A stretch of 24,000 nt of DNA from a virus (Duplodnaviria; Heunggongvirae; Uroviricota; Caudoviricetes), in the IMG/VR virus record IMGVR_UViG_2541047916_000002, one strand, 5' to 3'. The notes beneath the pieces were generated by a model. That model saw only the letters and a list, made by a program, of their open reading frames with translations, was not told where the DNA came from and ran no database searches. A program made the position numbers and the translations under genes. This document shows positions 7,581 to 23,040 of this stretch, piece after piece. Within the stretch, counting starts at the first letter, position 1. Every line of letters begins with the position of its first letter.

Positions 7581-7944
7581 AAATGCAGAAATGGCGCTTA
7601 GCTCCGCAATCGGAGAGCAGGTGGCAAAGATTGCTGGTGCTGTGTGGATTCATAACCTTCATTCTACTGGTGAAGAGAAAATGGCAATTCAGACGCCAGA
7701 GGGACGCACCATTACTACATCTCTGAAGCCGTCAGATGTTTGTGATCTGATTTGCGCATTCATGTACCCAGCAATGAGGACTGCCCACGGCGATAAGTGG
7801 AAACTTGCGACAACCGCTGAATTTGATATGTGGCTAAACAATGATGGCATGCTGACTGATTACGGAATAACCAAGTGGCAGATGCTGGTTAGCCATATCG
7901 CAAACGCTATAGACCACGTGGGGTACGGTGATGCGAAACATTGA
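7573..7944 (+). CDS. hypothetical protein (123 aa)
   Basis: GGGAGG SD; overlaps the upstream stop. Confidence 0.5.
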   Translation: MRENAEMALSSAIGEQVAKIAGAVWIHNLHSTGEEKMAIQTPEGRTITTSLKPSDVCDLICAFMYPAMRTAHGDKWKLATTAEFDMWLNNDGMLTDYGITKWQMLVSHIANAIDHVGYGDAKH

Positions 7945-10423
7945 TCTTATCCGTCAGGTTATCAGTGCGTCTGAAAACAACTGGCCTCATGTGCTGGGCT
8001 GCCTGAACATAAATGTCCCTGACTCTCCGCGCCGTCATGCTCCCTGCCCTGCATGTGGGGGCAAAGATCGATTCCGGTTCGATGACAACGGGCGCGGTAG
8101 CTTCATCTGTAATCAGTGCGGCGCTGGTGATGGGCTGGATTTAATTAAACGCGTAAATAACTGCGACACAACAGAGGCGGCGCTTCTTGCCGCTGATGTT
8201 CTGGGTATTGATTACCGGACAACGGAAACACCAGAAGCCACCAGCCAGAAACGGGAACAACTGGAAACCGAGCGCCAGCGACGCGAACAGGAGCGCCTGA
8301 AAAGGGCAGAGAAGGACGAACAACAAAGACGGGATACGTTTTCCCGTCAGTTTGATGACATGCGCAGAAAGGCTGTAAACGGCAAATCTGATTATCTGGT
8401 TGCGAAAGGGGTAGGTGATTTTACATTCCCCGTGTTGCCCGATGGATCTCTGTTGCTGGCGCTGGTGGATAAATCCGGCGCAGTAACAGCAGCACAGACT
8501 ATTACCTCACATGGTGAAAAAAGACTCCTGACAGGTTCAGCAAAGCGGGGGGCATATCACGCCATAAACGCACCAGAAACAACACAGAGCATCTTAATCG
8601 CAGAAGGGCTGGCAACGGCATTATCTGCCCATTTAATTCGTCCAGAGGCGCTGACAGTGGCGGCGATTGATGCCGGGAACCTGTTATATGTCGCCCAGGT
8701 ACTGCGGGATAAATTTCCTTCAGCACAAATCATCATTGCTGCGGATAACGACCACAGCGAAGGAAGACAAAACACGGGGAGAATAGCAGCAGAAAAAGCA
8801 GCTTTATCTGTTTCTGGATGGGTGGCATTACCCCCGACAGATCACAAAGCAGACTGGAATGATTACCACCAAAAACACGGCATTAAATGCGCCACAGAAG
8901 CGTTCAATAAGTCAATGTACCAACCACAGGGTAATGGCGTGAAACAGGAGCCACAGACCATTGAGGGAAGCGATTTTAAGGTTATGGATACCGACCCACT
9001 GAAACCAAGAATAGAAAGCCGCGAGGATGGTATTTATTGGGTATCTCCGAGAGCTGACAGCCAGAGTGGAGAAATCATCAATAACGAAAGCTGGTTATGT
9101 TCTCCGTTAAGCGTTATCGGTACTGGCAGAGACGATAAAGACCAGTATCTCATTCTTCGCTGGCTGTCGTTTGGTTCTGAAACGCCGACAACCGCTGCCA
9201 TTCCACTGGCTGATATTGGTGAACGTGAAGGATGGCGCACACTTAAAGCTGGTGGGGTAAATGTCACGACCAAAAGCAGCCTCAGAGCAATACTGGCAGA
9301 CTGGCTACAACGCAGTGGCTCTCGTGAATTGTGGCGTGTTGCTCATGCCACTGGCTGGCAATGCGGAGCGTACATCATGCCTGATGGGGAAATCATCGGA
9401 ACACCTGAAAATCCTGTGCTGTTCAGCGGGAGAAGCTCAGCCGCAGCCGGATATACCGTCTTAGGGAGCGCGAAAAGCTGGCGTGATAACGTGGCGCGTC
9501 TGGCCTTTGGTAACTATTCAATGATGACCGGGATCGGCGCAGCACTGGCAGCGCCATTGATTGGGCTGGTGGGCGCTGACGGGTTCGGCATTCATTTCTA
9601 TGAGCAGTCGAGCGCAGGTAAGACCACCACGGCAAACGTGGCGAGCAGCTTATACGGCAACCCTGATTTACTGCGGCTGACGTGGTACGGAACCGCGCTG
9701 GGGCTGGCAAATGAGGCCGCCGCCCACAATGACGGACTAATGCCGCTTGATGAAGTTGGTCAGGGCGCTGATCCTGTCAGCGTTTCACAGTCTGCCTATG
9801 CGTTATTTAACGGTGTAGGGAAACTGCAAGGCGCTAAAGATGGTGGAAACCGGGATCTAAAACGTTGGCGTACAGTGGCAATCAGCACCGGAGAAATGGA
9901 TTTAGAAACATTTATCGCTACTTCCGGGCGAAAAACCAAAGCCGGGCAACTGGTGCGACTGCTGAATATTCCGTTGAGTAAAGCAGTACGCTTTCACGAT
10001 TACCAGAACGGAAAACAGCACGCAGACGCACTGAAAGACGCTTACCAGCATCACCACGGCGCGTCCGGGCGTGAGTGGATTAAATGGCTGGCAGACCACC
10101 AGCAACAGGCTATTAAAACCGTTCGTGATTGCGAAAGCAGATGGAGAAGCCTGATCCCATCCGATTATGGTGAGCAGGTTCACCGTGTAGCCGCGCGATT
10201 TGCCATTCTGGAGGCCGCATTGTTGTTAGGCGAGGTTGTAACAGGCTGGGATGCTCAGACATGCCGTGATGCGATACAGCACAGCTATAACGCATGGTTG
10301 CGCGAGTTCGGCACAGGTAACAAAGAGCATCAGCAGATTATTGAACAAACGGAGGCATTTCTTAATGCCTATGGGCTTAGCCGTTTTGCACCATTTCCAT
10401 ACAGCCCGGCAGATTTGCCCATC
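7928..10423 (+). pseudogene. P4 alpha-like primase-helicase, N-terminal 832 codons, interrupted by an IS21-family insertion (the last two codons of the 833-aa ORF, 10424-10429, are IS-derived)
   Basis: Primase zinc ribbon (CPACGGKDRFRFDDNGRGSFICNQCGAGDG), Toprim (IAEG ... AADNDH), P-loop (SSAGKTT); the reading frame continues in frame at 12841 once the IS and one TSD copy are removed. Confidence 0.75.
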
Positions 10424-10488
10424 TATTAGACGTCAACTAGTTTTGCCGACTCGCGCCAACTATACTGGCCGCACCCTTCAGTGCGACA

Positions 10489-11244
10489 TCAAGTCGCGCT
10501 TGTTACTGCCTTCGCTGTCTTTTTCCTGTAGCTTTCACCTTTCAGTTCGAACATATATCCGTGATGGATCAGCCGGTCTGCCGCCGCCACCGCCATAGTC
10601 TCATCCACGAAGATGCTGCCCCACATGCTGAACGGATGGTTACTGGTTATCACCAGGCTCCCACGTTCATAGCGATGCGCTATTAACTCGAACAGTACTC
10701 CCGTTTCGGCGCTGTCGCGTTTGACATAGCCAAGATCATCCACCACTATCACCCGGTAGCGATCCAGTTTCAGTAGCAGCTCATTCAGTTTCAACTGCGC
10801 TCTGGCTTTACGTAGTTCCTGCAACAACTCTCCTGCGCTGTAGAACCGGGCCCGGTAGCCCTGGCCTACTACGCCATCCACGATCGCTGCCGCCAGATGG
10901 CTTTTCCCCAACCCGCTGGCTCCGAACAGCAGAACGTTTTCTCCTGCATCAACCCAGTCTGTCGTTTCACAGAGTTGCCGGAACTGAGCTCCATTCAGTT
11001 CCGGCACCTGACTGAAGTCGTATTCGCTTAGCGTTTTGGCAACTGGCAACCGGGCCTCCTTTTTATAACGACGCAGTTTTTCACTCTCGCGCCACAGGAG
11101 TTCTTCATTGCATAGCGTCAGAAGATAGCGCGATGGTGTCCAGCCTTCTGCCAGTGCTCGTTTTTCCAGAGCGTGCCATTCAGCTCCAACTCGTGTCAGG
11201 CGTAGTTTACGCAGGCTGCGTTCAAGGTGATGGATATTGCTCAC
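10489..11244 (-). CDS. istB: IS21-family ATP-binding helper IstB
   Basis: 251-aa ORF with Walker A GASGLGKSHLA; typical IstB size and position. Confidence 0.85.
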   Translation of the reverse strand: MSNIHHLERSLRKLRLTRVGAEWHALEKRALAEGWTPSRYLLTLCNEELLWRESEKLRRYKKEARLPVAKTLSEYDFSQVPELNGAQFRQLCETTDWVDAGENVLLFGASGLGKSHLAAAIVDGVVGQGYRARFYSAGELLQELRKARAQLKLNELLLKLDRYRVIVVDDLGYVKRDSAETGVLFELIAHRYERGSLVITSNHPFSMWGSIFVDETMAVAAADRLIHHGYMFELKGESYRKKTAKAVTSAT

Positions 11245-12740
11245 TGCGAACCTCCCTTGCCACGCAGTAGTTGCTCATAACTGCTCAGGTTATGCTGTTT
11301 CACATTGACTACCGGCAACGCCTTTTCCTTTATACCCAGGAAGCGCATCAGCCGGTGCAGATCCACGTTTCCCGGGGTATTCAGCATCTGCTCCATACCT
11401 TTTGCCACGACTGAGATATCGTCGTATCCTGCAGCCAGTTTCAGAGCATGTACCATCAGCCTGCCTGCCATGTCGGGTTCCAGATGATTACATAAGCGAC
11501 GCCACAGCCTCCGCCATTCATCGTCTGGCAGGATGTCATTTCTCAGCGTTGCATGGCAGAACGCACCGGGCTTTTTTGCCAGACTGTCGATCACATGTCG
11601 GAAGTCGATACGACGGGCCCGCGTCTTCCCTTTTTCTGGTCTGACACGTGGGCAGCTCATGACCTCGCTGCTGCCAACGTAACAGCTCAGACGATCGTCC
11701 CATAACCGGACCCGTAACAGTTGACCTACAAGCCGGGAAGGTACGCTGTAGACGACGTGCTTCACATTGATGGTACTGCTGCGGCTAACCCTCACAGTCA
11801 GCTCATCATAGTCAGCACTGCGACGAAGCGGCAGCGGTTTCAGATGAAGACGTTCTTCCTTGACCAGATCCTGATTGTTACGGTTGTGCCGCATAACCTG
11901 CTGAGTGATGAAGGCCTGATATTCTTCTATGGTGCTGAAGTCGTTACTGCCCCGCAGTATCAGCGCCTGACAGATACGCCTTTTCAGATGTCCGTGGGCA
12001 CTTTCAACCGAGCCATTTTCGTGGCCCCGACCGGCATTATTGTGTACGCCCTGCATTCCGTAGTGCTGACAGAGAGCAGCATAACGCTCAGTCAGCTCGC
12101 GGCGTCCATCTTCGCCCTGTTGTTTCCATGCTGCCCTCAGGCTGTCCGTTTTATGTTCTACCGGCACTCCGCCCAGTTGTCCGAGGGCTTCCTGCAGACC
12201 TTCAGCCAGAGCAGAGAAGCTCTCACCACCCAGCACAACCCGCATCCAGCTCCAGTGGCTCCATTCCAGACGGAAGTGATACAACTTATGCGCCAACAAC
12301 TTACCGGCGATGGTGACAACTACACCTTTCAGTTCAGTAAAGTCCGACAGACCTCGCAGACCGGGCTGATGTCGCTGGCGGAACATGACCTCCTGCTCTG
12401 CACCATACTGTAGCTTCCATTCGCGGACCCGCCGTTGCATTGTTCTTCGAAGGCTGTTGGGGTACTGGCCGGGATATTTATCCTGTAGCATCTCCAGCAG
12501 AGTTGTTGGTGTCAGAGCCGGCCTCTCTTTCAACAGAGGAACAAGCATGCTGTCCCACACAGCTTCCAGAGGATCTTTGCGTGTGCGCCAGTGCCGAACA
12601 CTGTTTTTTGCCCACTCTCCTTTTTCGATCCGACGACCAGAACGGACTGAGATACCAGCCTTCATGGCCGAGATATGCTGAGTTATACCTTTCTTACGCT
12701 GAGTCATATAGTAACTGACCTGAGAAGTATTGAGCGTCAC
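11241..12740 (-). CDS. istA: IS21-family transposase IstA
   Basis: 499-aa ORF with N-terminal HTH and a DDE-type core; 4-nt overlap with the downstream istB. Confidence 0.85.
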   Translation of the reverse strand: MTLNTSQVSYYMTQRKKGITQHISAMKAGISVRSGRRIEKGEWAKNSVRHWRTRKDPLEAVWDSMLVPLLKERPALTPTTLLEMLQDKYPGQYPNSLRRTMQRRVREWKLQYGAEQEVMFRQRHQPGLRGLSDFTELKGVVVTIAGKLLAHKLYHFRLEWSHWSWMRVVLGGESFSALAEGLQEALGQLGGVPVEHKTDSLRAAWKQQGEDGRRELTERYAALCQHYGMQGVHNNAGRGHENGSVESAHGHLKRRICQALILRGSNDFSTIEEYQAFITQQVMRHNRNNQDLVKEERLHLKPLPLRRSADYDELTVRVSRSSTINVKHVVYSVPSRLVGQLLRVRLWDDRLSCYVGSSEVMSCPRVRPEKGKTRARRIDFRHVIDSLAKKPGAFCHATLRNDILPDDEWRRLWRRLCNHLEPDMAGRLMVHALKLAAGYDDISVVAKGMEQMLNTPGNVDLHRLMRFLGIKEKALPVVNVKQHNLSSYEQLLRGKGGSQ

Positions 12741-12840
12741 GCCATTTCCTGTTGGATCATGTAAATGACACTCAGGTTACAAAACCGGCCAGAATAATCG
12801 GCGCCAGGCGGACTGAGTTATTGTCGTCTCATAGCCCATC

Positions 12841-13104
12841 AAAGATTTAGCCGGATACCGTCAGCGTGGAGAACATGACGAAAGCCCAATGATTTTCTAC
12901 ACATTCCCGGCCACATTTGAAAAGGAGATCGCATGTGGTTTCAACGCAAAACAGTTTGCTGAAGTGTTGAAAAAAGCCGGGATGCTAACCCCACCAAACA
13001 GCGGTCGTGGATACCAAAGAAAATCACCACGTATTCAGGGACGACAAATAAACGTTTATGTACTCAATTACCAGCCAGGAGATTATAACTCATCTGAAGA
13101 ATGA
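12841..13104 (+). pseudogene. C-terminal 87 codons of the IS-disrupted primase-helicase
   Basis: Open and in frame with the primase ORF across the restored junction (10423 joined to 12841); the ORF-track entry 12889-13104 is its ATG-started tail. Confidence 0.55.
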
Positions 13105-13129
13105 GCTTCTTCATGTGCGTAGAAAAGGT

Positions 13130-13240
13130 GTTGGTTCAGTTGGTTCAGTTGGTTCAATTTGTAAAGAGTATTGTTTTATAAGGATTTTATTCTTTTTATT
13201 GAACCAACACTGAACCAACAACACGGTATTTTGAACCAAC
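13130..13240. repeat. iteron cluster, putative island replication origin: 3x GTTGGTTCA, 43-bp AT-rich spacer, 3x TGAACCAAC
   Basis: Six 9-mers read directly, immediately downstream of the primase gene, as in P4/PICI-type ori arrangements. Confidence 0.55.
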
Positions 13241-13349
13241 ACAATGTGACTGAATTGATGCGCACAACACCTGGCTGGCATCAGAGAGTGTTTTACGAGA
13301 CTTTCGTAAAATCCTGTGTACAAGGGCGTGACGTTTTTGAAAGTGAGCA

Positions 13350-13366
13350 CTACGAAATTTTCGTAG
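13350..13366. promoter_or_regulatory. 17-bp palindrome CTACGAAATTTTCGTAG (putative protein-binding site)
   Basis: 8-bp arms around a central base; two related copies at 22149-22184. Confidence 0.3.
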
Positions 13367-13560
13367 TTCAAAAAACAGCCTCTGAGAAGTTGTTATGCCT
13401 GTTCAGCAAACCATCCGCATAGCTGATCGCGAATCAAATTACCAATGGAGCCAGAAGCAAGGGCAGAACTGAAAAGCGCCTGCCGTGAAGAGTAATGCGA
13501 CACCATAAATATAGTTTTTAGAGTCCATAAAAAACCTGTCAAAACCTGACACACAGAACG

Positions 13561-13593
13561 ATGCCACCAGCTACTGAGCGGTGGCATTTTTTT
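13561..13593 (+). terminator. intrinsic terminator (ATGCCACC-loop-GGTGGCAT followed by T7)
   Basis: 8-bp GC-rich stem plus a seven-T run; separates the ori region from the cargo module. Confidence 0.6.
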
Positions 13594-13688
13594 GTGCTAT
13601 TTGTTTCATATTTTGCAATTACGATGATGAATATTGCGATTTGTGAAACTATAATAACTGTTGTTTTATACAGTTCTAAGGGGGCGTT

Positions 13689-13850
13689 ATGGCTATTTCA
13701 GTAAAGCAGGTATTGATAAGTGAGAAGCAAATGGAAGCGATAAAGAAAATTCAGGAAGAGCAGCGTAAAAAATCAGGAATTGGAGTAGCGCCAACTCTGC
13801 ATGAAATTGCACGAGGGTTAATAGATAAGGCGCTGGCAGGCTGTATGTGA
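13689..13850 (+). CDS. small protein (53 aa), possibly a ribbon-helix-helix-type regulator
   Basis: Not in the ORF track (under 60 aa); AAGGGGG SD 5 nt upstream; TATAAT at 13650-13655; RHH assignment is a guess from size and predicted strand/helix pattern. Confidence 0.3.
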   Translation: MAISVKQVLISEKQMEAIKKIQEEQRKKSGIGVAPTLHEIARGLIDKALAGCM

Positions 13851-13866
13851 AAATGGATGGCATCGC

Positions 13867-14328
13867 ATGGAACTAAAATTTATTGATAACCCTGTGCGAT
13901 TACAGGCCTTTCTTAACGAGCCAGGCAATACCGAAAATATTGTTGAGCCGGGGCACACGTACTACATCAAGCCTGATGCGGTATATCTCGGCATCTACGA
14001 AGGATTAGTGCTGGCTGGCGTTCATGAAGTGCGTAACTTCTGGCATAGCGTTGTTGAATGCCATGCGGTGTACGACCCCGGATTCCGTGGTGAATATGCA
14101 CTGCAAGGGCATCGATTATTCTGCAAATGGCTTCTCGAAAACTCACCATTCCTTAACAGCATTACCATGGTTCCTGACACCACCAAATACGGACGGGCAA
14201 TTATCCGTTTGCTTGGCGCTACCCGTGTTGGTCACCTTGATGATGCTTATATCAGATGTGGTAAACCCGTCGGCGTAACGCTTTATCAGTTAACTCGGCA
14301 ACAATATAAGGAATTCAGCGAATGTTAA
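13867..14328 (+). CDS. hypothetical protein (153 aa), first gene of a virion-protein-like module (position equivalent to P22 gene 14)
   Basis: ORF translationally coupled to the next gene; no motif recognised. Confidence 0.45.
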   Translation: MELKFIDNPVRLQAFLNEPGNTENIVEPGHTYYIKPDAVYLGIYEGLVLAGVHEVRNFWHSVVECHAVYDPGFRGEYALQGHRLFCKWLLENSPFLNSITMVPDTTKYGRAIIRLLGATRVGHLDDAYIRCGKPVGVTLYQLTRQQYKEFSEC

Positions 14329-14975
14329 TTACCCACATAGCTCATAAACATCTCAATCGTGCCGTATACGAAAAAGGCGGTGATGGTGGTGCCTCTAAAG
14401 CTCAGGCGAAGGCCCAGCAGCAGGCAATTGATTTGCAGCGCGAGCAGTGGAATACGGTGATGAATAATCTCAAGCCGTATGCAGAAGTCGGATTGCCTGC
14501 TTTACAACAACTACAAGGACTGATGACTCTGGAAGGGCAGAATAAAGCCGCGAATGATTTCTTTGGTTCTGGTTTATATAAAACACAGGCAGATCAGGCC
14601 CGTTATCAGAACCTTGTCTCAGCAGAAGCTACCGGGGGGCTTGGCTCAACAGCTACCAGTAACCAGTTATCTTCCATTGCGCCCATGCTTTATAACAATT
14701 GGCTTAGTGGGCAAATGCAAAATTATGGAAACCTGCTAAATGTCGGGATGAATGCGGCATCAGGGCAGGCAACAGCAGGGCAACTCTTGCAGGGGCTTGG
14801 CGCTATTCGTGCAGGTCAGGCGCAGCAGCCATCCAGTCTTGCGCGTGGTATTGGTGGGGCGGCATCAGGCGCTTTAGCGGGTGCGCAACTTGGTTCCGTT
14901 GTTCCGGGTATAGGTAATGTCGCCGGGGCTATTGGTGGTGGGCTTATTGGTCTTGTTGGGGGGCTTGGATTCTAA
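14322..14975 (+). CDS. ejection-protein-like, P22 gp7-type (217 aa) with Gly-rich hydrophobic C-terminus
   Basis: Size, Q/A-rich composition, C-terminal glycine-zipper-like segment and gene order (217/473/701 aa versus P22 gp7/gp20/gp16 at roughly 229/471/609 aa); homology not verified. Confidence 0.45.
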   Translation: MLITHIAHKHLNRAVYEKGGDGGASKAQAKAQQQAIDLQREQWNTVMNNLKPYAEVGLPALQQLQGLMTLEGQNKAANDFFGSGLYKTQADQARYQNLVSAEATGGLGSTATSNQLSSIAPMLYNNWLSGQMQNYGNLLNVGMNAASGQATAGQLLQGLGAIRAGQAQQPSSLARGIGGAASGALAGAQLGSVVPGIGNVAGAIGGGLIGLVGGLGF

Positions 14976-16396
14976 TGGCGACATGGCAACTTGGCGGGCT
15001 GCCTAGCATGGCACCGCAAAATGATAATGCTCCTCGTTCTTCCGTTCCTCAGCCTGTGCAGTATCAGCAGCAGCCAAACGTAGGTTTAATGGCGCTACAG
15101 GGGCTAAGAGGCGTTGCTGAGATTAATCAGCAGGCACGTCAACAACAGCGTAAAGCAGAGTTTCAGAAAGCATATGCCGGGGCTTTTGAGTCTGGAGACA
15201 GAAACAAAATGCGCAGTCTTATTTCTGAGTATCCAGAAGAATTTGAAAGCGTTCAGAAAGGGATGGGCTTTATTGATGACGACCAGAGAAATTCTATTGG
15301 TCATCTTGCGACTAGTGCTCAAATCGCATCTTCGCTCGGAACTGGGGCATTTGGAAAATTCATAGCAGATAACGAAGATGAAATGCGTCGCTTGGGAATT
15401 TCTCCTGAGTCTGTTGCCGAAATGCATGTTAATGATCCACAGGGATTCCAGCGGCTTGCTGGTAGTATGGCACTGTTTTCTCTCGGTCATGAGAAGTATT
15501 TCGATATCAAAGATCAAATGGAAGGTCGGGATATTGAGCGTGGCAAGTTGGCAGAAACAATCCGCAGCAATCAGGCTGGCGAAGCACTTCAGGCGAGAGG
15601 GCAGGATATTAGCCGAGCAAATGCGTTAACGTCAGCATATGCACCAACAGCAGCAATGCAGAATTACAATCAGTACGCTCAAATGTTAAAGGCGGATCCA
15701 GAGGGGGCGGCGGCATTTGCGGCAGCGGCTGGAATTAATACAAACGCCAAAAAATTAATGAGTGTTAGAGAAAACGATGATGGCACTGTCACAAAATACT
15801 ACACAGACGGAAGTGAAGAGCAGGGAAAACTAAACCAGCCAATATCTGGAGATGGGTTTCGTCCAATAGCTTTGCCAACAGCCCAAAAGATCATGGAAAA
15901 GTCGCCAGAAGGGGCTAAAAAAGCTGCTGGATTTGCATACAGGGTTAGGGATGCTCTTGATTCAATAGATACACTGAAAGACCAGCTTAGCCCACAGCGA
16001 GTGGCGATCATTAATAATGCTTTGGGTAATGGGACGCTGGCTAACTTAACGCTCAGCCCAATAGAGCAGCAATACGTTGTTAATGCTAATGACGCAATAA
16101 TGGCAATACTCCGTCAGGAAACAGGGGCATCTATCCTACCAGCTGAAATGTCCAAATATTATCAAATGTATTTCCCTCAGCCTGGTGATTCCACAAAAAC
16201 CATTGATACCAAGCGCCGGAAGATGGAAAACCAGTTCAATTCGCTGAAAGCTGCTTCTGGTCGAGCTTATGATGCTTTGCGGGTTATTTCAGCAGTTGAC
16301 AGAGGAACTTCTTCTTCGTCGCAGACATTGCCGCAATCTGAGCAGGTATCACAGCCAGCAGCCAGCAGTAATTTTTCTTCACTATGGGGTGATTAA
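14975..16396 (+). CDS. ejection-protein-like, P22 gp20-type (473 aa)
   Basis: TAATG coupling to the upstream gene; Q/A-rich low-complexity protein of matching size and order. Confidence 0.45.
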   Translation: MATWQLGGLPSMAPQNDNAPRSSVPQPVQYQQQPNVGLMALQGLRGVAEINQQARQQQRKAEFQKAYAGAFESGDRNKMRSLISEYPEEFESVQKGMGFIDDDQRNSIGHLATSAQIASSLGTGAFGKFIADNEDEMRRLGISPESVAEMHVNDPQGFQRLAGSMALFSLGHEKYFDIKDQMEGRDIERGKLAETIRSNQAGEALQARGQDISRANALTSAYAPTAAMQNYNQYAQMLKADPEGAAAFAAAAGINTNAKKLMSVRENDDGTVTKYYTDGSEEQGKLNQPISGDGFRPIALPTAQKIMEKSPEGAKKAAGFAYRVRDALDSIDTLKDQLSPQRVAIINNALGNGTLANLTLSPIEQQYVVNANDAIMAILRQETGASILPAEMSKYYQMYFPQPGDSTKTIDTKRRKMENQFNSLKAASGRAYDALRVISAVDRGTSSSSQTLPQSEQVSQPAASSNFSSLWGD

Positions 16397-18501
16397 TGGC
16401 TAAAGCATGGAAAGATGTTATCGCTTCTCCACAGTATCAGGCGTTAGCACCAGAACAAAAAGCGCAGGCTCAAGAGCAATACTTCAATGAAGTCGTGGCC
16501 CCGCAAGCCGGAGAAAGTGTAGAGCAGGCTAAGCAGGCTTTTTATGCTGCCTATCCACTACCATCAACGAATGAAATAGACCGATCCCAATCAGCAACTC
16601 AAAATATTCAACATACATCATCTGATAATTCTCTTGCGTCAGGGTATGCAAAGTTAGCTACTCAGCAAAGAGAGGGGCTTGAGCGTTCAGCAGAACAGGG
16701 AGCCAGTCTTGGGGCTGCGATGCGCGATGCTATAACAGGCGAAAGCCGAATGACTCCAGAGATGGAGAGACTGCAAAATGTCGCCTCTGCCCCAGAATTG
16801 AACTCACTAAGCATGGATGCCCTAAAGGCTGGATGGTCTCAACTTTTCGGCTCTGACGCGTCTCAGGAAAAGATTCTTCAGGGAATGGGGGCGACATTAA
16901 GGCAGGATGAGAAGGGGAATACTATCGTTTCTCTGCCATCAGGTGATTATGCCCTGAACAAGCCGGGTTTATCACCGCAAGACCTGACTTCGTTTCTTGC
17001 TAATGCGTTGGCGTTTACACCAGCGGGCAGGGCTGGAACGGTGCTTGGTGCCATAGGAAAATCAGCAGCTACAGATTTAGCACTACAGGGAGCCACCAGC
17101 CTTGCTGGTGGAGAAGATATTGATCCGTTACAAACGGTAATTTCTGCTGGCATTGGTGGTATTGGTAAGGGGCTGGAAAATACAGCGAGTGCGGTTTCGA
17201 GGGCTGTTCGTGGTGATATGTCGCCTGAAGCAAAGGCTGCTGTCGACTTTGCATCGGAAAGAAATCTGCCGTTAATGACCAGTGACATGCTGAAAGATAA
17301 AACCTTTATGCAGAGTCAGGCTCAGACATTAGGCGAAAGAGTTCCTTTTTTTGGAACCGGTAAGAATCGGCTGAATCAACAACAAGCACGAGAAAATTTA
17401 GTCAGAACATTTAGCGATGGTCTGGGTGGCATTTCTGATAAACAGCTTTATGAATCTGCGACTAAAGGGCAACAAAAATTCATTGAGGCAGCAGGAAAGC
17501 GATATAACCGCATAATTGACGCTATGGGGGATACCCCTGTCGATCTCTCAAACACGGTAAAAGCTATCGACAATCAGATTGCCGTGTTAAGCCGCCCGGG
17601 CAAATCTCAGGATAGAGCCGCGGTAAAAGTCTTGCAGCAATTTAAAGACGATATCACCAGCGGACCAAATGACCTGCGTCTGGCGAGGGAAAACAGAACC
17701 GATCTTCGAAAGCGATTTATGGCGTCATCTGACACTGTTGATAAAGATACGCTCCAGAAAGCCAGCGATATTATCTACAAGGCATATACGGCGGATATGA
17801 AAAAAGCCGTAGCCAAAAATCTTGGAGCAGACGAAGCCATTAATATGGCAAGGGTTGATCGCTCATGGTCTAAATTCAATGACATGATGGGAAGAACGCG
17901 CGTTCAAAAGGCAATAGCCAGCGGCAAGGCCACGCCTGAGGATGTAACAAAACTCGTTTTTAGCCAAAGCCCATCAGAACGTTCTCAGCTTTACAGGCTT
18001 CTGGATGACAATGGTAGGCAAAACGCACGAGCGGCCATAGTTCAGAATGCTGTAGATAAGGCGACTGATCCGTCTGGAAATATCAGTGTTGAGAAGTTTA
18101 TTAATGCGTTACACCGGAACAGGAAGCAATCAGCAACTTTCTTTAAAGGCGTACATGGAAAGGAACTGGACGGCGTTATTAAATACCTCAACGATACAAG
18201 ACACGCGGCAAAAGCGAACGTTCAAAACTTAAATGGTCAGCAGCTTTATGGATTGTTAGTTGGTGGTGGCATCATAAACGCAGCAGTATTAGCGGGGATG
18301 CTAAAAACGGCTGCGTTTGTTGTTCCTGCTGCTGGTGCCGTAGGCGGAGCAGCGAAGGCATACGAAAGCCCTGTTATACGAAATGCCTTGTTACGTCTGG
18401 CAAATACGCCAAAAGGTAGCACAGCATATGACAGAGCGATCAGTACGGTCACACAATCGCTCACCAGAGTCGCACAGGCATCACAAAAAGAAGCTCAATA
18501 A
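16396..18501 (+). CDS. ejection-protein-like, P22 gp16-type (701 aa)
   Basis: TAATG coupling; hydrophobic Gly/Ala-rich C-terminal segment; position and size. Confidence 0.45.
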   Translation: MAKAWKDVIASPQYQALAPEQKAQAQEQYFNEVVAPQAGESVEQAKQAFYAAYPLPSTNEIDRSQSATQNIQHTSSDNSLASGYAKLATQQREGLERSAEQGASLGAAMRDAITGESRMTPEMERLQNVASAPELNSLSMDALKAGWSQLFGSDASQEKILQGMGATLRQDEKGNTIVSLPSGDYALNKPGLSPQDLTSFLANALAFTPAGRAGTVLGAIGKSAATDLALQGATSLAGGEDIDPLQTVISAGIGGIGKGLENTASAVSRAVRGDMSPEAKAAVDFASERNLPLMTSDMLKDKTFMQSQAQTLGERVPFFGTGKNRLNQQQARENLVRTFSDGLGGISDKQLYESATKGQQKFIEAAGKRYNRIIDAMGDTPVDLSNTVKAIDNQIAVLSRPGKSQDRAAVKVLQQFKDDITSGPNDLRLARENRTDLRKRFMASSDTVDKDTLQKASDIIYKAYTADMKKAVAKNLGADEAINMARVDRSWSKFNDMMGRTRVQKAIASGKATPEDVTKLVFSQSPSERSQLYRLLDDNGRQNARAAIVQNAVDKATDPSGNISVEKFINALHRNRKQSATFFKGVHGKELDGVIKYLNDTRHAAKANVQNLNGQQLYGLLVGGGIINAAVLAGMLKTAAFVVPAAGAVGGAAKAYESPVIRNALLRLANTPKGSTAYDRAISTVTQSLTRVAQASQKEAQ

Positions 18502-18519
18502 CTGGTTAGCCACGGATGG

Positions 18520-18939
18520 CTAATTTTTGTTCTTTGCTCTCATCCACAGGTAAAGAAGGGCAAGAACAAGACAAAAAACAGAGAATAGATAACCTACCTC
18601 ATATGATGCGCCAAAAAAATTAGCTATTGATACGGGCAAAAAAGCTGAAGCGATCAAAATTGAAAGGCAAAAAATAAGACCAGTAATATAGTTTATTAAA
18701 TTCTTAAATGAGAAACGTTTTGCTTGATTTATGGTCTTAGCGAACGATCGCTTAACGACGGATAAAAGCAAATAGATGGCGACAGTTGCTAATGCCCCTT
18801 TCCACCAGTCTGGATATAGTTTTGCGACAATCAGACCAAGGAAAACCATGATGACAGCCTGAGCATTCACACCAACCCTCCCTTTAGCGTTGTTTAGATT
18901 GGCAATCATCATATATCCAAGACATGGCATTTGGTACAT
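18520..18939 (-). CDS. small inner-membrane protein (about 139 aa, 4 predicted TM helices), in the position of a superinfection-exclusion gene (sieA-like by synteny only)
   Basis: Four hydrophobic helices in the translation; convergent with and 18 bp from the gp16-like gene; start uncertain (track ORF extends to 19107 with a TTG start). Confidence 0.45.
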   Translation of the reverse strand: MYQMPCLGYMMIANLNNAKGRVGVNAQAVIMVFLGLIVAKLYPDWWKGALATVAIYLLLSVVKRSFAKTINQAKRFSFKNLINYITGLIFCLSILIASAFLPVSIANFFGASYEVGYLFSVFCLVLALLYLWMRAKNKN

Positions 18940-19701
18940 AGCTTGGGTCGGGATTTCAAATCCGCCCCCGTTGATGGGGTCGTTACAGTACGCGCATATC
19001 CGCTTTATGTGAAACAGGAAGATTTTTCTGATATCACTGCCACAGCAAAACACCAATTTCGAGACAAGTACGCGCGCGAGGGGTATCAGTTGCAAAAAAT
19101 TTTGCAACTACGTCCGACCAATACACACACGATGGCGGGGGATACCATAAAACTGTTCTCTACATGAGACAGAGTGGTGGTGATGTGTTGATTATCGGCC
19201 TATATGCGCACAGGACGCGCTATGACAATGTTTTATGCGGGTACACCAATCACATGTATCTGGTGTGATAAATCGCGTTACATGACCTTTCATGTTGTGC
19301 TGGTGGTTATCACGACGTTCTGAATCTGGCTTTTGTCTGATATTTTGCGACAAGTACGCGCGCGTAACATCGAAATTATCGGATGGCGTATGTTGCTGGC
19401 AAGATAAAGTCGGCGTAATACAAAGGCGTTACTTGATAGCAGCAAGATTACAACAATGGTTGTTGAATTTGAGCGATGTAAGGAATTGATTTAGGGAGGC
19501 GCTGATGGCTAAAAAGTTCCACTACCAGCGGATGAATGCGCCAGCGATGGCCGTTTGGTAGTAAAAGAGGAGCCATTCCTCAATCAGTTGAATACATTAT
19601 GCCAACTAAATGGGTGGGGGCACTGTGTGGGTATTCAGCGGTGACGGTATTTTTTAAGCCAAGGACTATCCGTAGCAGGGGGACTCATTTTGAAATATTT
19701 A

Positions 19702-20139
19702 TCATATGTAACTTATTATTTTAGATAAAGATTTCCAGTTAAAGAAAAAAGTTATCATTGATATAATCAAATATGCCCCTGCGAGTAGCAGGGCATAATA
19801 ATCCAGAGGCAGATTGCTGACAACAGGGGCAAACATCGAGATCATTGCTAATAGGCAGGCTGTGATCAGCGTAGTTCCTGTATCAAAAAGCCCCTCAATA
19901 ATGCCTTTTAGTACTCCGTTACTTTTTAGAGCGCCTACAATTCCCTTTGAACTATCAAAGCTACTTAGCATGGTGACTGATGCCAAAACAAAACCAAAGA
20001 GAACTCCAGAAATAGTTGAAAGAGCACCAGCAGCCGAAATGACAGCATTGTGATCTAGGTCGTGTAATAAATGGGCACCAGCAATAGCCATAGCTAGAGC
20101 AAACAATGACTTGGCAGCAAACAATTTCCGAGAACTCAT
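19702..20139 (-). CDS. 4-TM membrane protein (145 aa), second gene of a two-gene AT-rich operon
   Basis: Four hydrophobic segments; 12-nt gap from the upstream 361-aa gene; long ORF in AT-rich DNA. Confidence 0.6.
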   Translation of the reverse strand: MSSRKLFAAKSLFALAMAIAGAHLLHDLDHNAVISAAGALSTISGVLFGFVLASVTMLSSFDSSKGIVGALKSNGVLKGIIEGLFDTGTTLITACLLAMISMFAPVVSNLPLDYYALLLAGAYLIISMITFFFNWKSLSKIISYI

Positions 20140-20151
20140 AATGTATTCCTG

Positions 20152-21237
20152 TTACGTTTGACTAACCAAATAGTACTGGGTTAGATACCTAAGGTTGTCA
20201 TTCTTTGCTTGTAGCATAGCATTTTTAACGTCAGTATCGGTCGGATACCCATCTGCTTGGATAGGCACCATCTTCTTTACCGTAAGAACTTCGTCTACAA
20301 GACTTTTCTTCTTTTTATCGCCCTGAGCAACAACATTTGCTTTCTCAAAAGTTAAACGACCATCACCACCAGGGAACTTTTCTAGCATCTCCTTAAGGCT
20401 TTTTTTAACGTCATCCTCAAGCCATCCCTTTGCTTTTCTTTTTAATGGAGAATGTCCGCGTAACGAAATAGTCAGGTGGCTTGAACTGGTGCCTCTGATC
20501 ATCTCAATCATCTGATTCGCGAACATTCCATCGAGTTGATACTGTGCGGCATTGAAGTTTCTTGGGATGGCCACAGAAATCTCGCAGCTTCTTAGATTGG
20601 ATCCAGTTTCGAGTAGTTCTTTGATGCTTTCTTCTTTCCAAATGGCTTCAAAAGAAACAGGGACTCCGCGATCACTGGAGTTGAAAAGAAGGAAGGCTAA
20701 GTCACTATGGCGTGGACCTAAATGATTTAAAGACAATACTAGAATGTCTGTCTGAGGATAATAAATAAAGTATGTACGTTCTGAAAGAGTCTTTGCCCCG
20801 GCTAGAGGGATTTTCTCTTCCACCCACTCTTTATCTGTAATATATGCCAGTGTTGCGCTTTTTCTTCTTCGAGACATGAATCCGAAGTAGGAGCCATCCT
20901 CGGGTGAGATGTCTAGAAAATGAATTTTAAGTTCTCTTTCACCAAAGTCTGCATAGTGGGTCATCTTGAAGTCTTTAGAACACCGATCATACAGATTTTT
21001 AAAGGCCTCTGCGGTTAACCCCTTGTTACTAGTGCGAATATTCTCAGAGCTTGTGTAAAAGCCCACCCTTACAGATTTCAAACTTTGATCTTTTGGTGCC
21101 ACAGTCATTTGAGCTCCATTGTACTCTGCGATAGTTTTTGCACACCTTGAAATCAAAATCTCCATGTCAGTCACGAGAAAATAACTATGGATGAAACCCA
21201 TCAAAGGCATTGAATACAGGTGGCTTTTGAGAATCAT
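20152..21237 (-). CDS. hypothetical soluble protein (361 aa), no recognisable domain; first gene of the candidate defense operon
   Basis: Uninterrupted 361-codon ORF in AT-rich sequence where chance ORFs of this length are very unlikely; operon partner is a 4-TM protein. Confidence 0.6.
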   Translation of the reverse strand: MILKSHLYSMPLMGFIHSYFLVTDMEILISRCAKTIAEYNGAQMTVAPKDQSLKSVRVGFYTSSENIRTSNKGLTAEAFKNLYDRCSKDFKMTHYADFGERELKIHFLDISPEDGSYFGFMSRRRKSATLAYITDKEWVEEKIPLAGAKTLSERTYFIYYPQTDILVLSLNHLGPRHSDLAFLLFNSSDRGVPVSFEAIWKEESIKELLETGSNLRSCEISVAIPRNFNAAQYQLDGMFANQMIEMIRGTSSSHLTISLRGHSPLKRKAKGWLEDDVKKSLKEMLEKFPGGDGRLTFEKANVVAQGDKKKKSLVDEVLTVKKMVPIQADGYPTDTDVKNAMLQAKNDNLRYLTQYYLVSQT

Positions 21238-21724: not shown

Positions 21725-22012
21725 ATGATAAGGGACAGGAAAGCTGAAGAGCTGGAGTCAAAAGGGCTATACCGGAGAGCTGCCGCACGATGGGCAGAAG
21801 TCATGATGCTGGCAAATGGCGATAAAGAACGTGAACATGCAGCAAACAGGCGCTCTGAATGTATCCGTAAGGCGGCACGCCCACCAGCAACTACAGACAG
21901 ATTCGGAGATTTAAGACAGGCAGTTAAGCGAACTCATTCGGCTCTTGGTATGGATGAGGAAGCGAGAGGGTACTTCAGGCGTTATCGCGATAAAGATTGC
22001 CAGAGACAGTAA
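21725..22012 (+). CDS. PerC-family transcriptional activator-like protein (95 aa)
   Basis: Motif AEELESKGLYRRAAARWAEVM...REHAANRRSECI resembles the PerC family pattern; GAGAGG SD. Confidence 0.55.
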   Translation: MIRDRKAEELESKGLYRRAAARWAEVMMLANGDKEREHAANRRSECIRKAARPPATTDRFGDLRQAVKRTHSALGMDEEARGYFRRYRDKDCQRQ

Positions 22013-22059: not shown

Positions 22060-22370
22060 GCTATAAAAATGGTTTTAGGTACATTCCTCAAATTGAGGTT
22101 TCCGAAAATATCAGCGGGTTAGCGATTAATCTGGCGAGTAATTAAACTGCGAAAATTTCGTAGGGGGTTACGAAAATTTCGTAGGTCTACTCATGGTTTA
22201 GGCTTACTTTCCCGACATCCCCCAATGGGGGGTTCGAAATAATCAATGGGTTAGGCTTACCTCCCCCCATTTCCTGCATTGCAGGTTTTCGAAAGAATCA
22301 ATGGGTTAGGTCATCGTGCAAATTTGCACTCTGCCAGCCAACGCAATTTCTCGTTGGCGGAAATATCAGG
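22060..22370. repeat. ORF-free array of direct repeats near the island right end: ATGG(G)TT(T)AGG x4, TTCGAAA-nAATCAATGGGTTAGG x2, ACGAAAATTTCGTAGG x2, GAAATATCAG x2
   Basis: Repeats read directly; location fits the P arm of attR, where recombination directionality factor and host-factor sites would lie. Confidence 0.35.
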
Positions 22371-22541: not shown

Positions 22542-22551
22542 TCCTATTATC
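22542..22551. other. right-end copy of the att core segment (TCCTATTATC, identical to tRNA positions 1428-1437)
   Basis: 10-bp direct repeat of the tRNA 3' region, followed by sequence homologous to the int-upstream region at 1446-1609. Confidence 0.4.
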
Positions 22552-22701
22552 AACGTCTCCCCAAGTCTACTCAAGTATTTAAAAACCTCTTATAATCAGT
22601 ATATTAATGCCCCTTTTAGTCTTTTGACGTCTATTTAAGTACCCCAAACTCTACAAGCAATTGAGGGGATTTGCTGTTCAGTTTAGTGGAGATACCCCCA
22701 A

Positions 22702-23040
22702 GTGAAACTCAATGCCCGTCAAATAGACACTGCCAAGCCAAAAGAGAAGGCTTACAAGTTGGCTGATGGTGGTGGTCTGTACCTCCTGGTAAAACCTGGT
22801 GGAGGAGAATATTGGCGTCTCAAGTATCGTGTAGCTGGTAAAGAGAAGCTGTTAGCACTAGGTGTGTATCCTGAGGTCACCTTAGCTGATGCTCCTGCAA
22901 AACTTGAAGAAGCTAAAAGAGGTATCTCTGGGGGAATCGATCTGATGGAAGTGAAGCGAGAGGAAAAGATTGCCCGGGAAACGCAGTTAAACAACACCTT
23001 CAAAGATATTGCCCTTGAGTGGCACAGTAACAAATTATAA
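22702..23040 (+). pseudogene. truncated second copy of the P4-type integrase (112 codons, about 90 percent identical to the N-terminus of the 1610 gene), remnant of a tandem island
   Basis: Near-identical N-terminal 112 aa and upstream region; homology ends abruptly at 23037 and the sequence becomes AT-rich. Confidence 0.7.

Follow-up and report, generated by a model that had tools for sequence, protein, structure and literature searches.

P22-type ejection-protein genes in the late zone of an EcCIMP1-family phage satellite

Why would an integrated satellite encode the ejection proteins of a P22-like podovirus while carrying none of the genes that build a virion? The question is raised by a 24,000-nucleotide stretch of viral DNA (IMG/VR record IMGVR_UViG_2541047916_000002; the window hereafter refers to this whole stretch). 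An earlier note, made from the letters alone, had described within it a module of four or five translationally coupled genes resembling the P22 14-7-20-16 block.

Homology of the module to the P22 ejection-protein block

Four plus-strand ORFs of 153, 217, 473, and 701 amino acids follow one another in P22 order (14-7-20-16), with the fifth of the earlier count being an ORF of 53 amino acids. The gp14 homologue (13,867–14,328) matches DUF2824 (PF11039, E 1.5e-61, 207 bits against a cutoff of 25) and phrog_651, and the gp7 homologue (14,322–14,975) matches the P22_gp7 ejection-protein family (PF25688, E 1.4e-63, 215 bits, cutoff 28). The ejection protein gp20 is represented at 14,975–16,396 (PF16928, E 4.5e-58, 197 bits, cutoff 29.7; phrog_917, E 5e-112). 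The gp16 homologue, also an ejection protein (16,396–18,501), matched no Pfam family and was assigned to phrog_770, "DNA transfer protein" (E 2.4e-163). By BLASTP, identities to the P22 proteins are 23% for gp14 (E 2e-8), 59% for gp7 (E 8e-50), 38% for gp20 (E 7e-45), and 30% over 482 amino acids for gp16 (E 4e-53). The homology is well beyond chance, and the module comprises true homologues of the P22 block.

Translational coupling is borne out by the junctions, which read ATGTTAA (gp14/gp7), TAATG (gp7/gp20), and TAATG (gp20/gp16). The proteins are Ala/Gln/Gly-rich, in line with the Q/A-rich composition remarked earlier, and the hydrophobic Gly-rich tail is present in the gp7-like protein, which has lost 8 amino acids through an in-frame deletion relative to other island copies. 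The gp14-like protein is 84% identical to Kapi1_055, and the gp16 ORF is intact, though PGAP labels the identical ORF a pseudogene in strain ABU 83972. Directly 3' of gp16 lie a terminator-like hairpin (18,504–18,525, plus strand) and, at the position of P22 sieA, a small multi-pass membrane ORF (18,520–18,909, minus strand) within the phage-derived patch described below. This ORF is 89% identical to the post-gp16 ORF of the AH19K002 prophage and had no PHROG or PADLOC match; the SieA motif is absent, and assignment as a SieA homologue was rejected. When P22 and Kapi1 proteins (including coat, portal, scaffold, terminase, gp4, gp10, needle, tailspike, SieA, and integrase) were searched against the window by tblastn, only gp7, gp20, and gp16 gave matches, and PHROG scans returned no structural match for the other island ORFs. 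Capsid, terminase, and tail genes are absent, as the earlier note held, and the module is not part of a larger prophage remnant with structural genes.

The surrounding island

Inserted at thrW is a phage satellite that belongs, as a phage-inducible chromosomal island (PICI), to the EcCIMP1 family. EcCIMP1 itself, the PICI of Escherichia coli MP1, excises and is transduced only when the P22-like phage Kapi1 is present (Pick, Stadel & Raivio, ISME J 2025; PMC11773190). The target tRNA-Thr(CGT) gene, beside proA, lies at 1,369–1,444 on the plus strand (ARAGORN, Rfam tRNA). A direct-repeat search for the att core placed TCCTATTATC at attL (1,428–1,437) and at attR (22,542–22,551, plus strand), the right end of the island; the core is identical to that published for EcCIMP1 (PMC11773190). 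After attR comes a degenerate second copy of the post-attL sequence, including the start of the integrase gene.

All on the plus strand, the left arm encodes a tyrosine integrase with Arm-DNA-binding, central, and catalytic domains (1,610–2,824; PF13356, PF22022, PF00589), followed by an AlpA-family regulator (3,252–3,455; PF05930); by experiment, AlpA is the master activator of the EcCIMP1 island cycle (PMC11773190). A Bro-type zone (3,899–5,968) comprises an AntA/AntB antirepressor (3,899–4,732; PF08346) and an Ash-family ORF (4,901–5,968; PF10554), with isrK RNA (5,282–5,359; RF01394, 69 bits) and C4 RNA (5,422–5,509; RF01695, 81 bits) inside. The Zn-ribbon/Toprim/DUF927 primase gene (7,928–13,104) encodes an uninterrupted 918-amino acid product in ABU 83972 and is here interrupted at 10,423/12,834 by an IS21-family element (10,424–12,833, minus strand), as delimited by the IstB_IS21 Pfam match, junction sequences, and alignment to ABU 83972 and MP1, the closest relatives, both of which lack it. 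The element encodes istA (11,241–12,740) and istB (10,489–11,244), both on the minus strand, and is flanked by a 7-bp target duplication, GCCCATC. The insertion probably cripples replication of this island copy; the ejection module is untouched by it.

Downstream of the primase gene, a repeat search identified origin-like iterons (13,128–13,242), in which three GTTGGTTCA(G/A)T repeats face three TGAACCAAC repeats across an AT-rich spacer. The module sits after these iterons and not between them, contrary to its earlier placement in an iteron-bracketed segment. In the right arm, a two-gene minus-strand cargo (19,702–21,237; PHROG) that is not P22-derived encodes a 145-amino acid membrane protein (phrog_8552) and a 361-amino acid protein (phrog_7651), and a PerC-family regulator lies at 21,725–22,012 (plus strand; PF06069).

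Late-zone organization, spread, and allele exchange

The late zone forms one transcription unit in the order terminator, promoter, 53-amino acid gene, gp14, gp7, gp20, gp16, terminator. It begins after a hairpin with a T-run (13,563–13,594, plus strand), a terminator-like feature that closes the replication unit and aligns at the same position in many related loci. From 32 aligned upstream regions and a motif census, a family-conserved putative promoter was delineated (13,600–13,688, plus strand), with two TTTCA-N5/6-TGCAA-like motifs, a -10 TATAAT (13,650–13,655), and a LexA-box-like CTGT-N8-ACAG (13,658–13,673). The promoter motif occurs once within the window, and the region is conserved and, judging from these elements, presumably regulated. 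The gene that follows, which we term small53 (13,689–13,850, plus strand), has homologues at 43–98% identity in 31 of 77 loci and a dN/dS of 0.03. AlphaFold2 predicts an extended N-terminus and two helices (pLDDT 77); no match was found in Pfam, PDB, or PHROG.

In related islands carrying it, small53 opens a slot whose contents we surveyed across Enterobacterales. Delivery or virion proteins occupy the slot in 29 of 55 species-level loci, in 24 of the 29 loci with small53, and likewise in 52 of 73 usable IMG/VR loci. These include tape-measure proteins, podovirus internal-virion proteins, lytic transglycosylase (SLT) virion proteins, baseplate hubs, and P22-type ejection proteins. The tape-measure protein is often paired with a chaperone-like gene, and in some relatives a gene resembling a small terminase subunit follows the slot. 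This slot-wide pattern across the island family appears to be unreported.

P22-type ejection genes recur in other islands, including one from Leclercia. Among the four island copies compared, all four module ORFs are intact, with pN/pS of 0.06–0.12; between the E. coli MP1 and Leclercia islands, dN/dS is 0.067–0.080 for all four genes. These ratios indicate that the module genes are under purifying selection in island copies and are not decaying. Part of the low between-genera dN/dS could reflect divergence inside phages before separate captures. Of 5,426 complete E. coli genomes, 240 contain the primase-origin-small53-gp14 junction. MP1-type gp16 is 83% conserved between the E. coli MP1 and Leclercia islands, yet in 50,697 phage records its relatives reach no more than about 52% identity. 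In other E. coli islands the set kept is small53-gp20-gp16 alone, in one case on a backbone with a different replicase, and gp16 is interrupted by IS insertions in some E. coli copies.

Recombination with a P22-like prophage, one of the origins suggested earlier, is evident within the module. Positions 15,136–18,944 have no match in EcCIMP1 of strain MP1, which is otherwise 98–99% identical, and share ~91% DNA identity with a P22-like prophage of E. coli AH19K002 that is degraded and located at tRNA-Arg. At the protein level, the gp20-like allele differs from that of EcCIMP1 from about 15,136 on, and residues 69–701 of the gp16-like protein are 94% identical to gp16 of the AH19K002 prophage. 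These alignments directly show that the segment was swapped in from a P22-like phage by recombination, and that module genes exchange alleles with such phages by homologous recombination. Between EcCIMP1 and Kapi1, identities are 83% (gp14), 57% (gp7), 26% (gp20), and 24% (gp16).

Candidate functions and comparison with known systems

The best-supported functional reading is that the island's ejection proteins would serve in hijacked virions. An analogy with Vibrio PLE satellites, whose genomes include tape-measure protein genes, suggests that the satellite would supply its own genome-delivery proteins to helper-built particles, and we give this a probability of roughly 50%. Upon induction of a P22-like helper, the island would express its own ejection proteins, which would be built into helper-made procapsids. 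A satellite-specified conduit would then serve for injection by particles with island DNA and probably also by helper particles that the same cell releases. The satellite could thereby control which recipients admit its DNA, for example by entering despite SieA-type exclusion proteins, which act on gp20 and gp16, and would be less tied to the ejection-protein alleles that a given helper happens to carry. Complete foreign ejection-protein sets enter P22 virions and function, gp16 and gp20 need matching partners, and SieA blocks transducing particles too, with escape mapping to gp16 and gp20 (PMC10883804). Of the ejection-protein sets tested, that of HK620 alone spared its phage from exclusion by two widely divergent SieA types (PMC10883804); therefore, allele swapping is no general escape route.

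Several observations count against delivery. P22 ejection proteins enter procapsids before DNA packaging, so it is hard to see how the satellite could keep them for particles of its own. Transduction of EcCIMP1 by Kapi1 is very inefficient (about 5e3 particles per ml), and a Kapi1-like prophage occurs in only 2 of 21 EcCIMP1-carrying strains (PMC11773190). The primase gene of the present copy is, moreover, disrupted.

An unlikely alternative is that the island proteins act as poison subunits among the helper's non-matching gp16 and gp20 in shared procapsids, leaving helper particles unable to inject and reducing helper spread. Satellites commonly interfere with their helpers, PICI defences against tail assembly are known (PMC11364771), a gp16 and a gp20 of different phage origin prove incompatible if mixed singly (PMC10883804), and EcCIMP1 gp20 and gp16 share only about 25% identity with those of Kapi1. 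However, Kapi1 titres after induction are unaffected by EcCIMP1 (PMC11773190), poisoning would cripple satellite-carrying particles too, and the retention of gp14 and gp7, the two proteins more similar to their helper counterparts, would be left unexplained. Also doubtful is a role in the resident cell, where ejection proteins in the envelope, or titration of a host factor, would block the conduit of an incoming P22-like phage and confer superinfection immunity. EcCIMP1 does add to immunity against Kapi1 superinfection, and known defence systems were looked for on it and not found (PMC11773190); PADLOC finds none on the present island, and a promoter of the module's own, with a possible operator, precedes it. 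That immunity was seen in Kapi1 lysogens alone, however, and full-length, coupled gp14-7-20-16 under strong purifying selection exceeds what a decoy needs; the pairing of virion proteins with chaperone-like genes in the slot of relatives suggests particle assembly instead.

That the module is an inert recombination leftover from a P22-like prophage, of no use to the island, is improbable and largely refuted. The island does recombine with such phages, some E. coli copies have IS insertions in gp16, and PGAP calls gp16 a pseudogene in some genomes; yet these calls proved to be artefacts of intact ORFs where checked, the pN/pS and dN/dS values are low, a family-conserved promoter and gene stand ahead of the module, and analogous virion-protein genes fill the slot in other genera. 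Highly improbable is the packaging role proposed by Pick et al., who labelled the genes "DNA transfer"/DUF2824-like without recognizing the P22 block (PMC11773190) and in whose account these proteins would steer helper packaging to island DNA: the module does sit where other PICIs hold packaging modules, and some relatives have the small-terminase-like gene after the slot, but the proteins are homologous to ejection proteins rather than to terminase or Rpp-type factors, and the present island has neither that gene nor DNA similarity to the Kapi1 small-terminase (terS/pac) region.

Satellite-encoded delivery proteins can be set against several known systems. The island shares with P4 an integrase of P4-like type next to a tRNA gene, an AlpA-type regulator, the C4 and isrK immunity RNAs, and a primase followed by an origin. 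The earlier label of a P4-type int-alpA-primase satellite stands as regards the satellite and fails as regards strict P4: the element is a Gram-negative PICI in which searches revealed neither psu, sid, or delta nor a cos-type module, and its helper type is a P22-like podovirus and not P2. Like other Gram-negative PICIs, it has four zones (integration, Bro with C4/isrK RNAs, replication, and late), its phage late genes come from helpers, and it resembles prophages at the DNA level. Capture of helper late-gene clusters by the late zone is established (Tommasini, Mageeney & Williams 2023; PMC10111431) and the EcCIMP1 helper is P22-like (PMC11773190), making the cargo less unexpected than first thought. 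Capsid genes are the commonest captures in the late-zone study, and searches of its main text turned up neither ejection nor tape-measure proteins (PMC10111431); here, in contrast, capture is limited to delivery proteins behind a conserved gene and promoter.

With P22 and its counterparts in Sf6, HK620, and CUS-3, the module shares homologous proteins, gene order, stop/start overlaps, and a small opposite-strand membrane ORF after gene 16. Unlike P22, the island lacks genes 26, 10, and 4, coat, portal, terminase, and tailspike, its membrane ORF is not SieA, and the module is preceded by an island-specific promoter and 53-amino acid gene rather than lying in a phage late operon. With EcCIMP1, the tRNA-Thr/proA site, att core, and gene order are shared, DNA identity is 99% over 1–10,423 and 97.8% over 12,834–15,135, and both have the small53-gp14-gp7 module start and an adjoining MarR/vat island remnant. 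The present copy differs in its IS21-family element, in its gp20, gp16, and downstream membrane-ORF alleles (gp16 has 701 amino acids here versus 906 in the SLT-bearing EcCIMP1 form), in its right-arm cargo, and in lacking alpA_1.

In the Vibrio PLE satellites, a tape-measure protein, a tail chaperone, and a baseplate hub are satellite-encoded, and mass spectrometry and western blotting detected them in PLE virions (Nature 2026; PMC12987554). The element families are unrelated, and the PLE helper is a lytic myovirus, in contrast to a temperate podovirus with delivery proteins inside the capsid. In both, the satellite encodes diverged homologues of the helper's delivery-core proteins (20–41% identity to the helper in PLE; 24–57% here for gp16, gp20, and gp7). 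Relatives of the present island have genes for tape-measure, chaperone-like, and hub proteins in the slot that holds the ejection module here.

Identity and organization of the ejection gene module

The window opens with proA (1-1254), which is followed by the tRNA-Thr(CGT) gene thrW (1369-1444). The 10-bp direct repeat TCCTATTATC occurs only twice, in the 3′ end of the tRNA gene (1428-1437) and at 22542-22551, and two matches were found in none of the window shuffles. Between the repeats lie, in this order, a tyrosine integrase with an Arm-DNA-binding domain, AlpA, an AntA/AntB antirepressor, an Ash-family ORF, several small ORFs, and a Zn-ribbon/Toprim/DUF927 primase; the earlier note had rightly taken the host element for an int-alpA-primase satellite-type element. 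The layout is int-alpA-Bro/Ash zone-primase-ori-late zone, spanning 21.1 kb including a 2.4-kb insertion sequence, against about 19-20 kb for the EcCIMP1 type. Origin-like iterons follow the primase stop codon, with three GTTGGTTCA copies facing three inverted copies. Matches to the P4 CI-type immunity RNAs isrK (5282-5359, Rfam 69 bits) and C4 (5422-5509, 81 bits) lie inside the Ash-family ORF, in keeping with the immunity function assigned to the "Bro zone" of Gram-negative PICIs.

The island is an EcCIMP1-type Gram-negative PICI, an IS-disrupted allelic variant of a known family. It is integrated at thrW between TCCTATTATC repeats; EcCIMP1 of E. coli MP1, a 19,963-bp PICI, shares its att core and occupies tRNA-Thr in the proA-yagU interval (PMC11773190). 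The backbone is 99.0% identical to that of MP1 over 1-10423 (10.4 kb) and 97.8% over 12834-15135 (2.3 kb). Island type and gene presence were already known because both had been published for EcCIMP1. The primase gene is interrupted by a minus-strand IS21-family element (istA/istB, 10424-12833, 2.4 kb) with a 7-bp target duplication, GCCCATC, so replication of this copy is doubtful and it is probably replication-defective. Across 5,426 complete genomes, this site is free of IS21 in each of the closest E. coli relatives listed. The element was also considered as a deletion junction between a satellite and a prophage remnant; this was ruled out because ABU 83972, MP1, and the closest relatives examined all have the island but lack the IS, and because the primase-ori-small53-gp14 junction is shared by these two strains and by no fewer than 240 genomes of E. 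coli.

In the late zone, four translationally coupled plus-strand ORFs of 153, 217, 473, and 701 aa (13867-14328, 14322-14975, 14975-16396, and 16396-18501; junctions ATGTTAA, TAATG, and TAATG) encode homologues of gp14, gp7, gp20, and gp16, in the 14-7-20-16 gene order of P22 and Sf6. The gp14 homologue matched PF11039 (DUF2824; 207 bits, cut-off 25) and phrog_651, and was 23% identical to P22 gp14 in pairwise BLASTP. The gp7 homologue matched PF25688 (P22_gp7; 215 bits, cut-off 28) and shares 59% identity with P22 gp7. For the gp20 homologue (38% identity to P22 gp20), PF16928 ("Inj_translocase"; 197 bits, cut-off 29.7) covered the N-terminal 213 aa and phrog_917 the full length. The gp16 homologue had no match to any Pfam model; it was recognized through phrog_770 ("DNA transfer protein", E 2.4e-163) and by BLASTP against P22 gp16 (30% over 482 aa, E 4e-53). 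The positions, overlaps, and P22 likeness claimed in the earlier note were thus accurate, and the BLASTP comparison that it proposed with gp7, gp20, and gp16 returned similarity in each case. Database labels for these genes ("hypothetical," "injection protein (pseudogene)," and "DNA transfer") are corrected accordingly. The gp7 homologue, at 217 aa, falls short of the 225 aa found in MP1 and in three further copies of the island, owing to an in-frame 8-codon deletion toward the C-terminus.

No tblastn match was obtained in the window for P22 or Kapi1 coat, portal, terminase, gp4, gp10, gp26, tailspike, immI region, or P22-type integrase. The island ORFs outside the module lacked structural PHROG matches, with no capsid, terminase, or tail genes among them, in agreement with the note, and no lysis genes either. 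A larger P22-like prophage remnant with adjoining structural genes, which the note had said would overturn its reading, was ruled out: the P22 and Kapi1 protein queries placed no other P22-like gene beside the block, which has the island origin and small53 to its left and non-P22 cargo to its right. In that cargo, a minus-strand pair (19702-21237) encodes a 145-aa membrane protein (phrog_8552) together with a 361-aa protein (phrog_7651) that has 42-44% identical relatives in the lambdoid phage cdtI and two E. coli siphoviruses. The pair is not P22-derived and may be an uncharacterized defense or moron pair; PADLOC matched no known defense system in the right arm. Between perC and attR, a 23-nt repeat, TTCGAAATAATCAATGGGTTAGG, is present three times (22101-22310; 74-100% identical); the copies might be recombinase arm-type or regulator sites. 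Directly after attR, the sequence that begins behind attL recurs in degenerate form (22552-23040, 74-88% identical) and contains codons 1-112 of an integrase gene; MarR follows, with vat next in relatives. The stretch is what remains of a second, tandem island, which Pick et al. reported as non-excising (PMC11773190).

Conservation of the module and recombination with phages

Of 5,426 complete E. coli genomes, 240 (~4%) contain the primase-ori-small53-gp14 junction, and 180 genomes carry the full module with the alleles of the window. Four island copies were compared, this one at thrW and one from each of three further genomes irrespective of integration site; every copy has the four ORFs intact, with pN/pS of 0.06-0.12. 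Between the MP1 island and that of Leclercia adecarboxylata, dN/dS is 0.067-0.080 for all four genes; the note's question of whether related islands share the module is answered in the affirmative. The gp16 of the MP1/Leclercia type has no relative above ~52% identity among 50,697 phage records, which suggests that this lineage has for some time been resident in islands, although part of the E. coli/Leclercia divergence could have accrued in unsampled phages. PGAP annotates gp16 as a pseudogene ("injection protein," C-terminus missing) in ABU 83972 (locus L001, 16979-18794) and in strain 04-00955 (locus L170, 3621-5436), but the 701-aa ORF is open in both. Because the ABU 83972 ORF is identical and open, the label is an artifact of a mosaic gene.

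Recombination with a P22-like prophage, one of the explanations offered in the note, is directly evidenced and took the form of allele replacement within an existing module. The segment 15136-18944, comprising most of gp20, all of gp16, and a small opposite-strand membrane ORF, has no match in EcCIMP1; its DNA shares ~91% identity with a degraded P22-like prophage that occupies tRNA-Arg in E. coli AH19K002 (gp16 94% and membrane ORF 89% identical at the protein level). The left end of the patch falls within the conserved 5′ part of gp20. The gp20 and gp16 proteins need to match each other, and escape from SieA maps to this pair (PMC10883804). Identity between EcCIMP1 and Kapi1 proteins falls along the block, from 83% for gp14 to 57% for gp7, 26% for gp20, and 24% for gp16.

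The 129-aa membrane ORF after gp16 occupies the position of sieA. Its identification as SieA was rejected: the protein showed no BLASTP likeness to P22 SieA, the one among types A-C compared directly, and no PHROG match, and the SieA motif FxRYPxEAxxFNK is absent from all six frames of the window.

A candidate delivery-protein slot in related islands

A hairpin with a T-run (13563-13594) ends the replication region and is followed by a promoter-like stretch (13600-13688) with a perfect TATAAT at 13650-13655. The 53-aa ORF small53 (13689-13850) comes next, with the four ejection genes directly downstream and a second hairpin and T-run at 18504-18525. Alignment of 32 related islands revealed conserved elements upstream of small53: two TTTCA-N5/6-TGCAA-like motifs and a -10 element with CTGTAT just after it. 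In the 24-kb window, this last element forms the only canonical CTGT-N8-ACAG LexA-type box, CTGTTGTTTTATACAG, at 13658-13673. Given that the box is canonical in only 7 of the 32 related promoters (and one base short in 12), LexA control of the small53 promoter is raised here only as a possibility. A 22-nt motif, AGTTTTnnGAGTCCATAAAAAA, occurs at 5220-5241, 13356-13377, and 13513-13534, with one copy shortly before isrK and the other two ahead of the terminator preceding the slot promoter; no complementarity or pairing was found between C4 RNA and the repeats upstream of the slot.

We scanned for related loci using the primase as a seed and one genome per species, which yielded 77 loci, mostly adjoining tRNA genes. 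Homologues of small53 were found in 31 of these (43-98% identity, dN/dS 0.03), opening the slot regardless of the cargo behind. The family ranges from 53 to 66 aa, with the consensus VKPVLL..Q.EA...QE.ER.KS.LGVAPTIH.IARGLMDKAL. Searches of Pfam, PDB sequences, PHROG, and Foldseek returned no match. The structural model predicts an extended N-terminus and two helices, but assignment as a ribbon-helix-helix regulator was not established; small53 might be a regulator.

Only three of the 77 loci, from an Escherichia species, Leclercia, and Pectobacterium, have P22-type ejection genes behind the primase. In Pectobacterium sp. B1J-3 (locus L036, 15130-19407), a single 1,425-aa ORF with gp20-like (phrog_2534) and gp16-like (phrog_770) parts looks like a fusion of two ejection proteins. 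Other slots hold different cargo, with class names taken from PHROG labels and homology. One type encodes tape-measure proteins (857-1245 aa), in most cases behind a 108-aa gene with 37% identity to the gene two upstream of the tape-measure gene in a Klebsiella siphovirus. Another is a four-gene set (188, 888, 565, and 849 aa) with PHROG "internal virion protein" and SLT (lytic transglycosylase) matches, the three large genes of which are collinear with three consecutive genes of Stenotrophomonas phage vB_SmeS_BUCT708. Further types include other SLT-bearing virion proteins and baseplate-hub homologues. Two E. coli islands adjoining yicG (L087, 8856-12605; L088, 9404-13027) carry small53 followed by gp20- and gp16-like genes only, without gp14 or gp7; one of the two encodes a DUF5906 replicase instead of the Toprim/DUF927 primase.

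Among the 55 loci with at least 5 kb of sequence downstream of the primase, 29 had a delivery-type gene, 6 had capsid, portal, and large-terminase genes, and 20 had other or unknown content. The delivery-type fraction was 24 of 29 for loci with small53. An independent scan of IMG/VR seeded with small53 gave a delivery-type gene in 52 of 73 usable loci, a sample that is probably redundant, and none of the IMG/VR small53 loci encoded P22 coat, portal, or terminase. With flanks of 10 kb, att repeats were seen to enclose the slot gene in three loci of other species; for most related loci, location inside the island is deduced from the tRNA-int-primase layout. Downstream of the slot, many related islands encode a 175-275-aa protein likened to the small terminase subunit (L060, 13044-13649; L066, 18604-19431; L104-L168, e.g., L137, 8504-9049), and some encode a head-maturation-protease-related protein (phrog_6216) in place of the delivery protein. 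The island in the window has no small-terminase-like gene.

A bolder reading, to which we give a probability of about 40%, is that of a widespread lineage of Enterobacterales PICIs with a dedicated slot after the origin, consisting of a conserved promoter and a conserved ~55-aa gene, that the satellite loads with the delivery proteins of whichever helper type is exploited. The loads would be gp14/gp7/gp20/gp16 or gp20/gp16, a four-gene internal-virion set, a tape-measure protein with a chaperone-like partner, SLT proteins, or a baseplate hub. If this slot reading is true, satellites would generally tailor the DNA-injection apparatus of the particles they steal, and the purpose might be to pass entry-exclusion systems or meet host-factor needs in recipient cells. 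The interest is moderate for the window alone and would be higher with the slot confirmed.

Possible function and relation to known satellites

Satellites are usually described in terms of capsid theft and redirected packaging. The explanation that we favor adds a delivery step: the island would express its own ejection proteins during helper growth, and these would be built into helper-made particles, such that the satellite specifies delivery. The helper dependence of the family on a P22-like phage comes from the literature, with EcCIMP1 excising and circularizing only in lysogens of Kapi1 through a cycle that requires its own integrase and AlpA (PMC11773190). The explanation gains plausibility from P22, in which complete foreign sets of ejection proteins assemble into virions and work, from the action of SieA on transducing particles too, with HK620-type proteins partly escaping (PMC10883804), and from the Vibrio PLEs discussed below. 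Against it, there is no obvious means of keeping the proteins for satellite particles, and SieA is broadly effective.

Below this explanation we rank the use of the proteins as poison subunits against the helper, for which the divergence of gp20 and gp16 from Kapi1 is pertinent. Exclusion by the resident cell also ranks lower; EcCIMP1 contributes to superinfection immunity (PMC11773190). An inert leftover is ranked lower too: the island does recombine with P22-like phages, but its four ORFs are intact, with pN/pS of 0.06-0.12. A role as packaging factor, likewise ranked lower, was suggested by the EcCIMP1 authors, who likened EcCIMP1_017-019 to "DNA transfer" and DUF2824 proteins (PMC11773190); we found no pac-like match to the Kapi1 small-terminase region, and DNA likeness to Kapi1 is confined to gp14 and the start of gp7.

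Should particles make use of the island proteins, the range of cells able to receive transduced DNA would be determined by the satellite and not by the helper, and ejection proteins would be a natural target of, or escape route from, SieA-type exclusion. Family members include those of ABU 83972 and the CFT073-related MP1, and the island adjoins the vat toxin island. EcCIMP1 is transduced by Kapi1 at low frequency (PMC11773190), and its unexplained phenotypes of packaging/transfer and superinfection immunity become directly testable. In the open-access literature searched, we found no description of satellite-encoded ejection or internal-virion proteins. The element family has been described before, as has the presence of these genes; the apparent novelty lies in their exact identification as the P22 ejection block, the evidence for its maintenance and phage swapping, and the family-wide delivery-protein slot.

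Among known systems, the island layout fits the four-zone plan of Gram-negative PICIs, in which the "late zone" captures helper late genes (PMC10111431). Relative to P4 in the strict sense, the island shares the C4/CI-type immunity RNA but lacks psu, delta, and sid in Pfam and PHROG scans of its ORFs. For the mode of action, a parallel is offered by the Vibrio PLEs, the one satellite family shown, only in 2025-26, to replace the helper tape-measure protein and hub (PMC12987554). According to that paper, a tape-measure protein had been reported from no other satellite; a 2025 preprint describes one in mycobacterial satellites. The delivery proteins of PLE11 let it escape its own anti-tape-measure defense (PMC12987554). 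Incorporation into satellite particles has been shown for the PLEs, whose virions contain the PLE-encoded tape-measure protein, chaperone, and hub (PMC12987554). If the slot reading is true, its ejection version would be the podovirus counterpart of the chimeric PLE tails, applying the same logic to a short-tailed helper, with proteins of the trans-envelope conduit that are satellite-encoded, conserved, and exchanged with phages. The PLE-like trait is visible at two levels: diverged homologues of the helper's ejection proteins, as in EcCIMP1 versus Kapi1, and tape-measure, chaperone-like, and hub genes in the slot of relatives.
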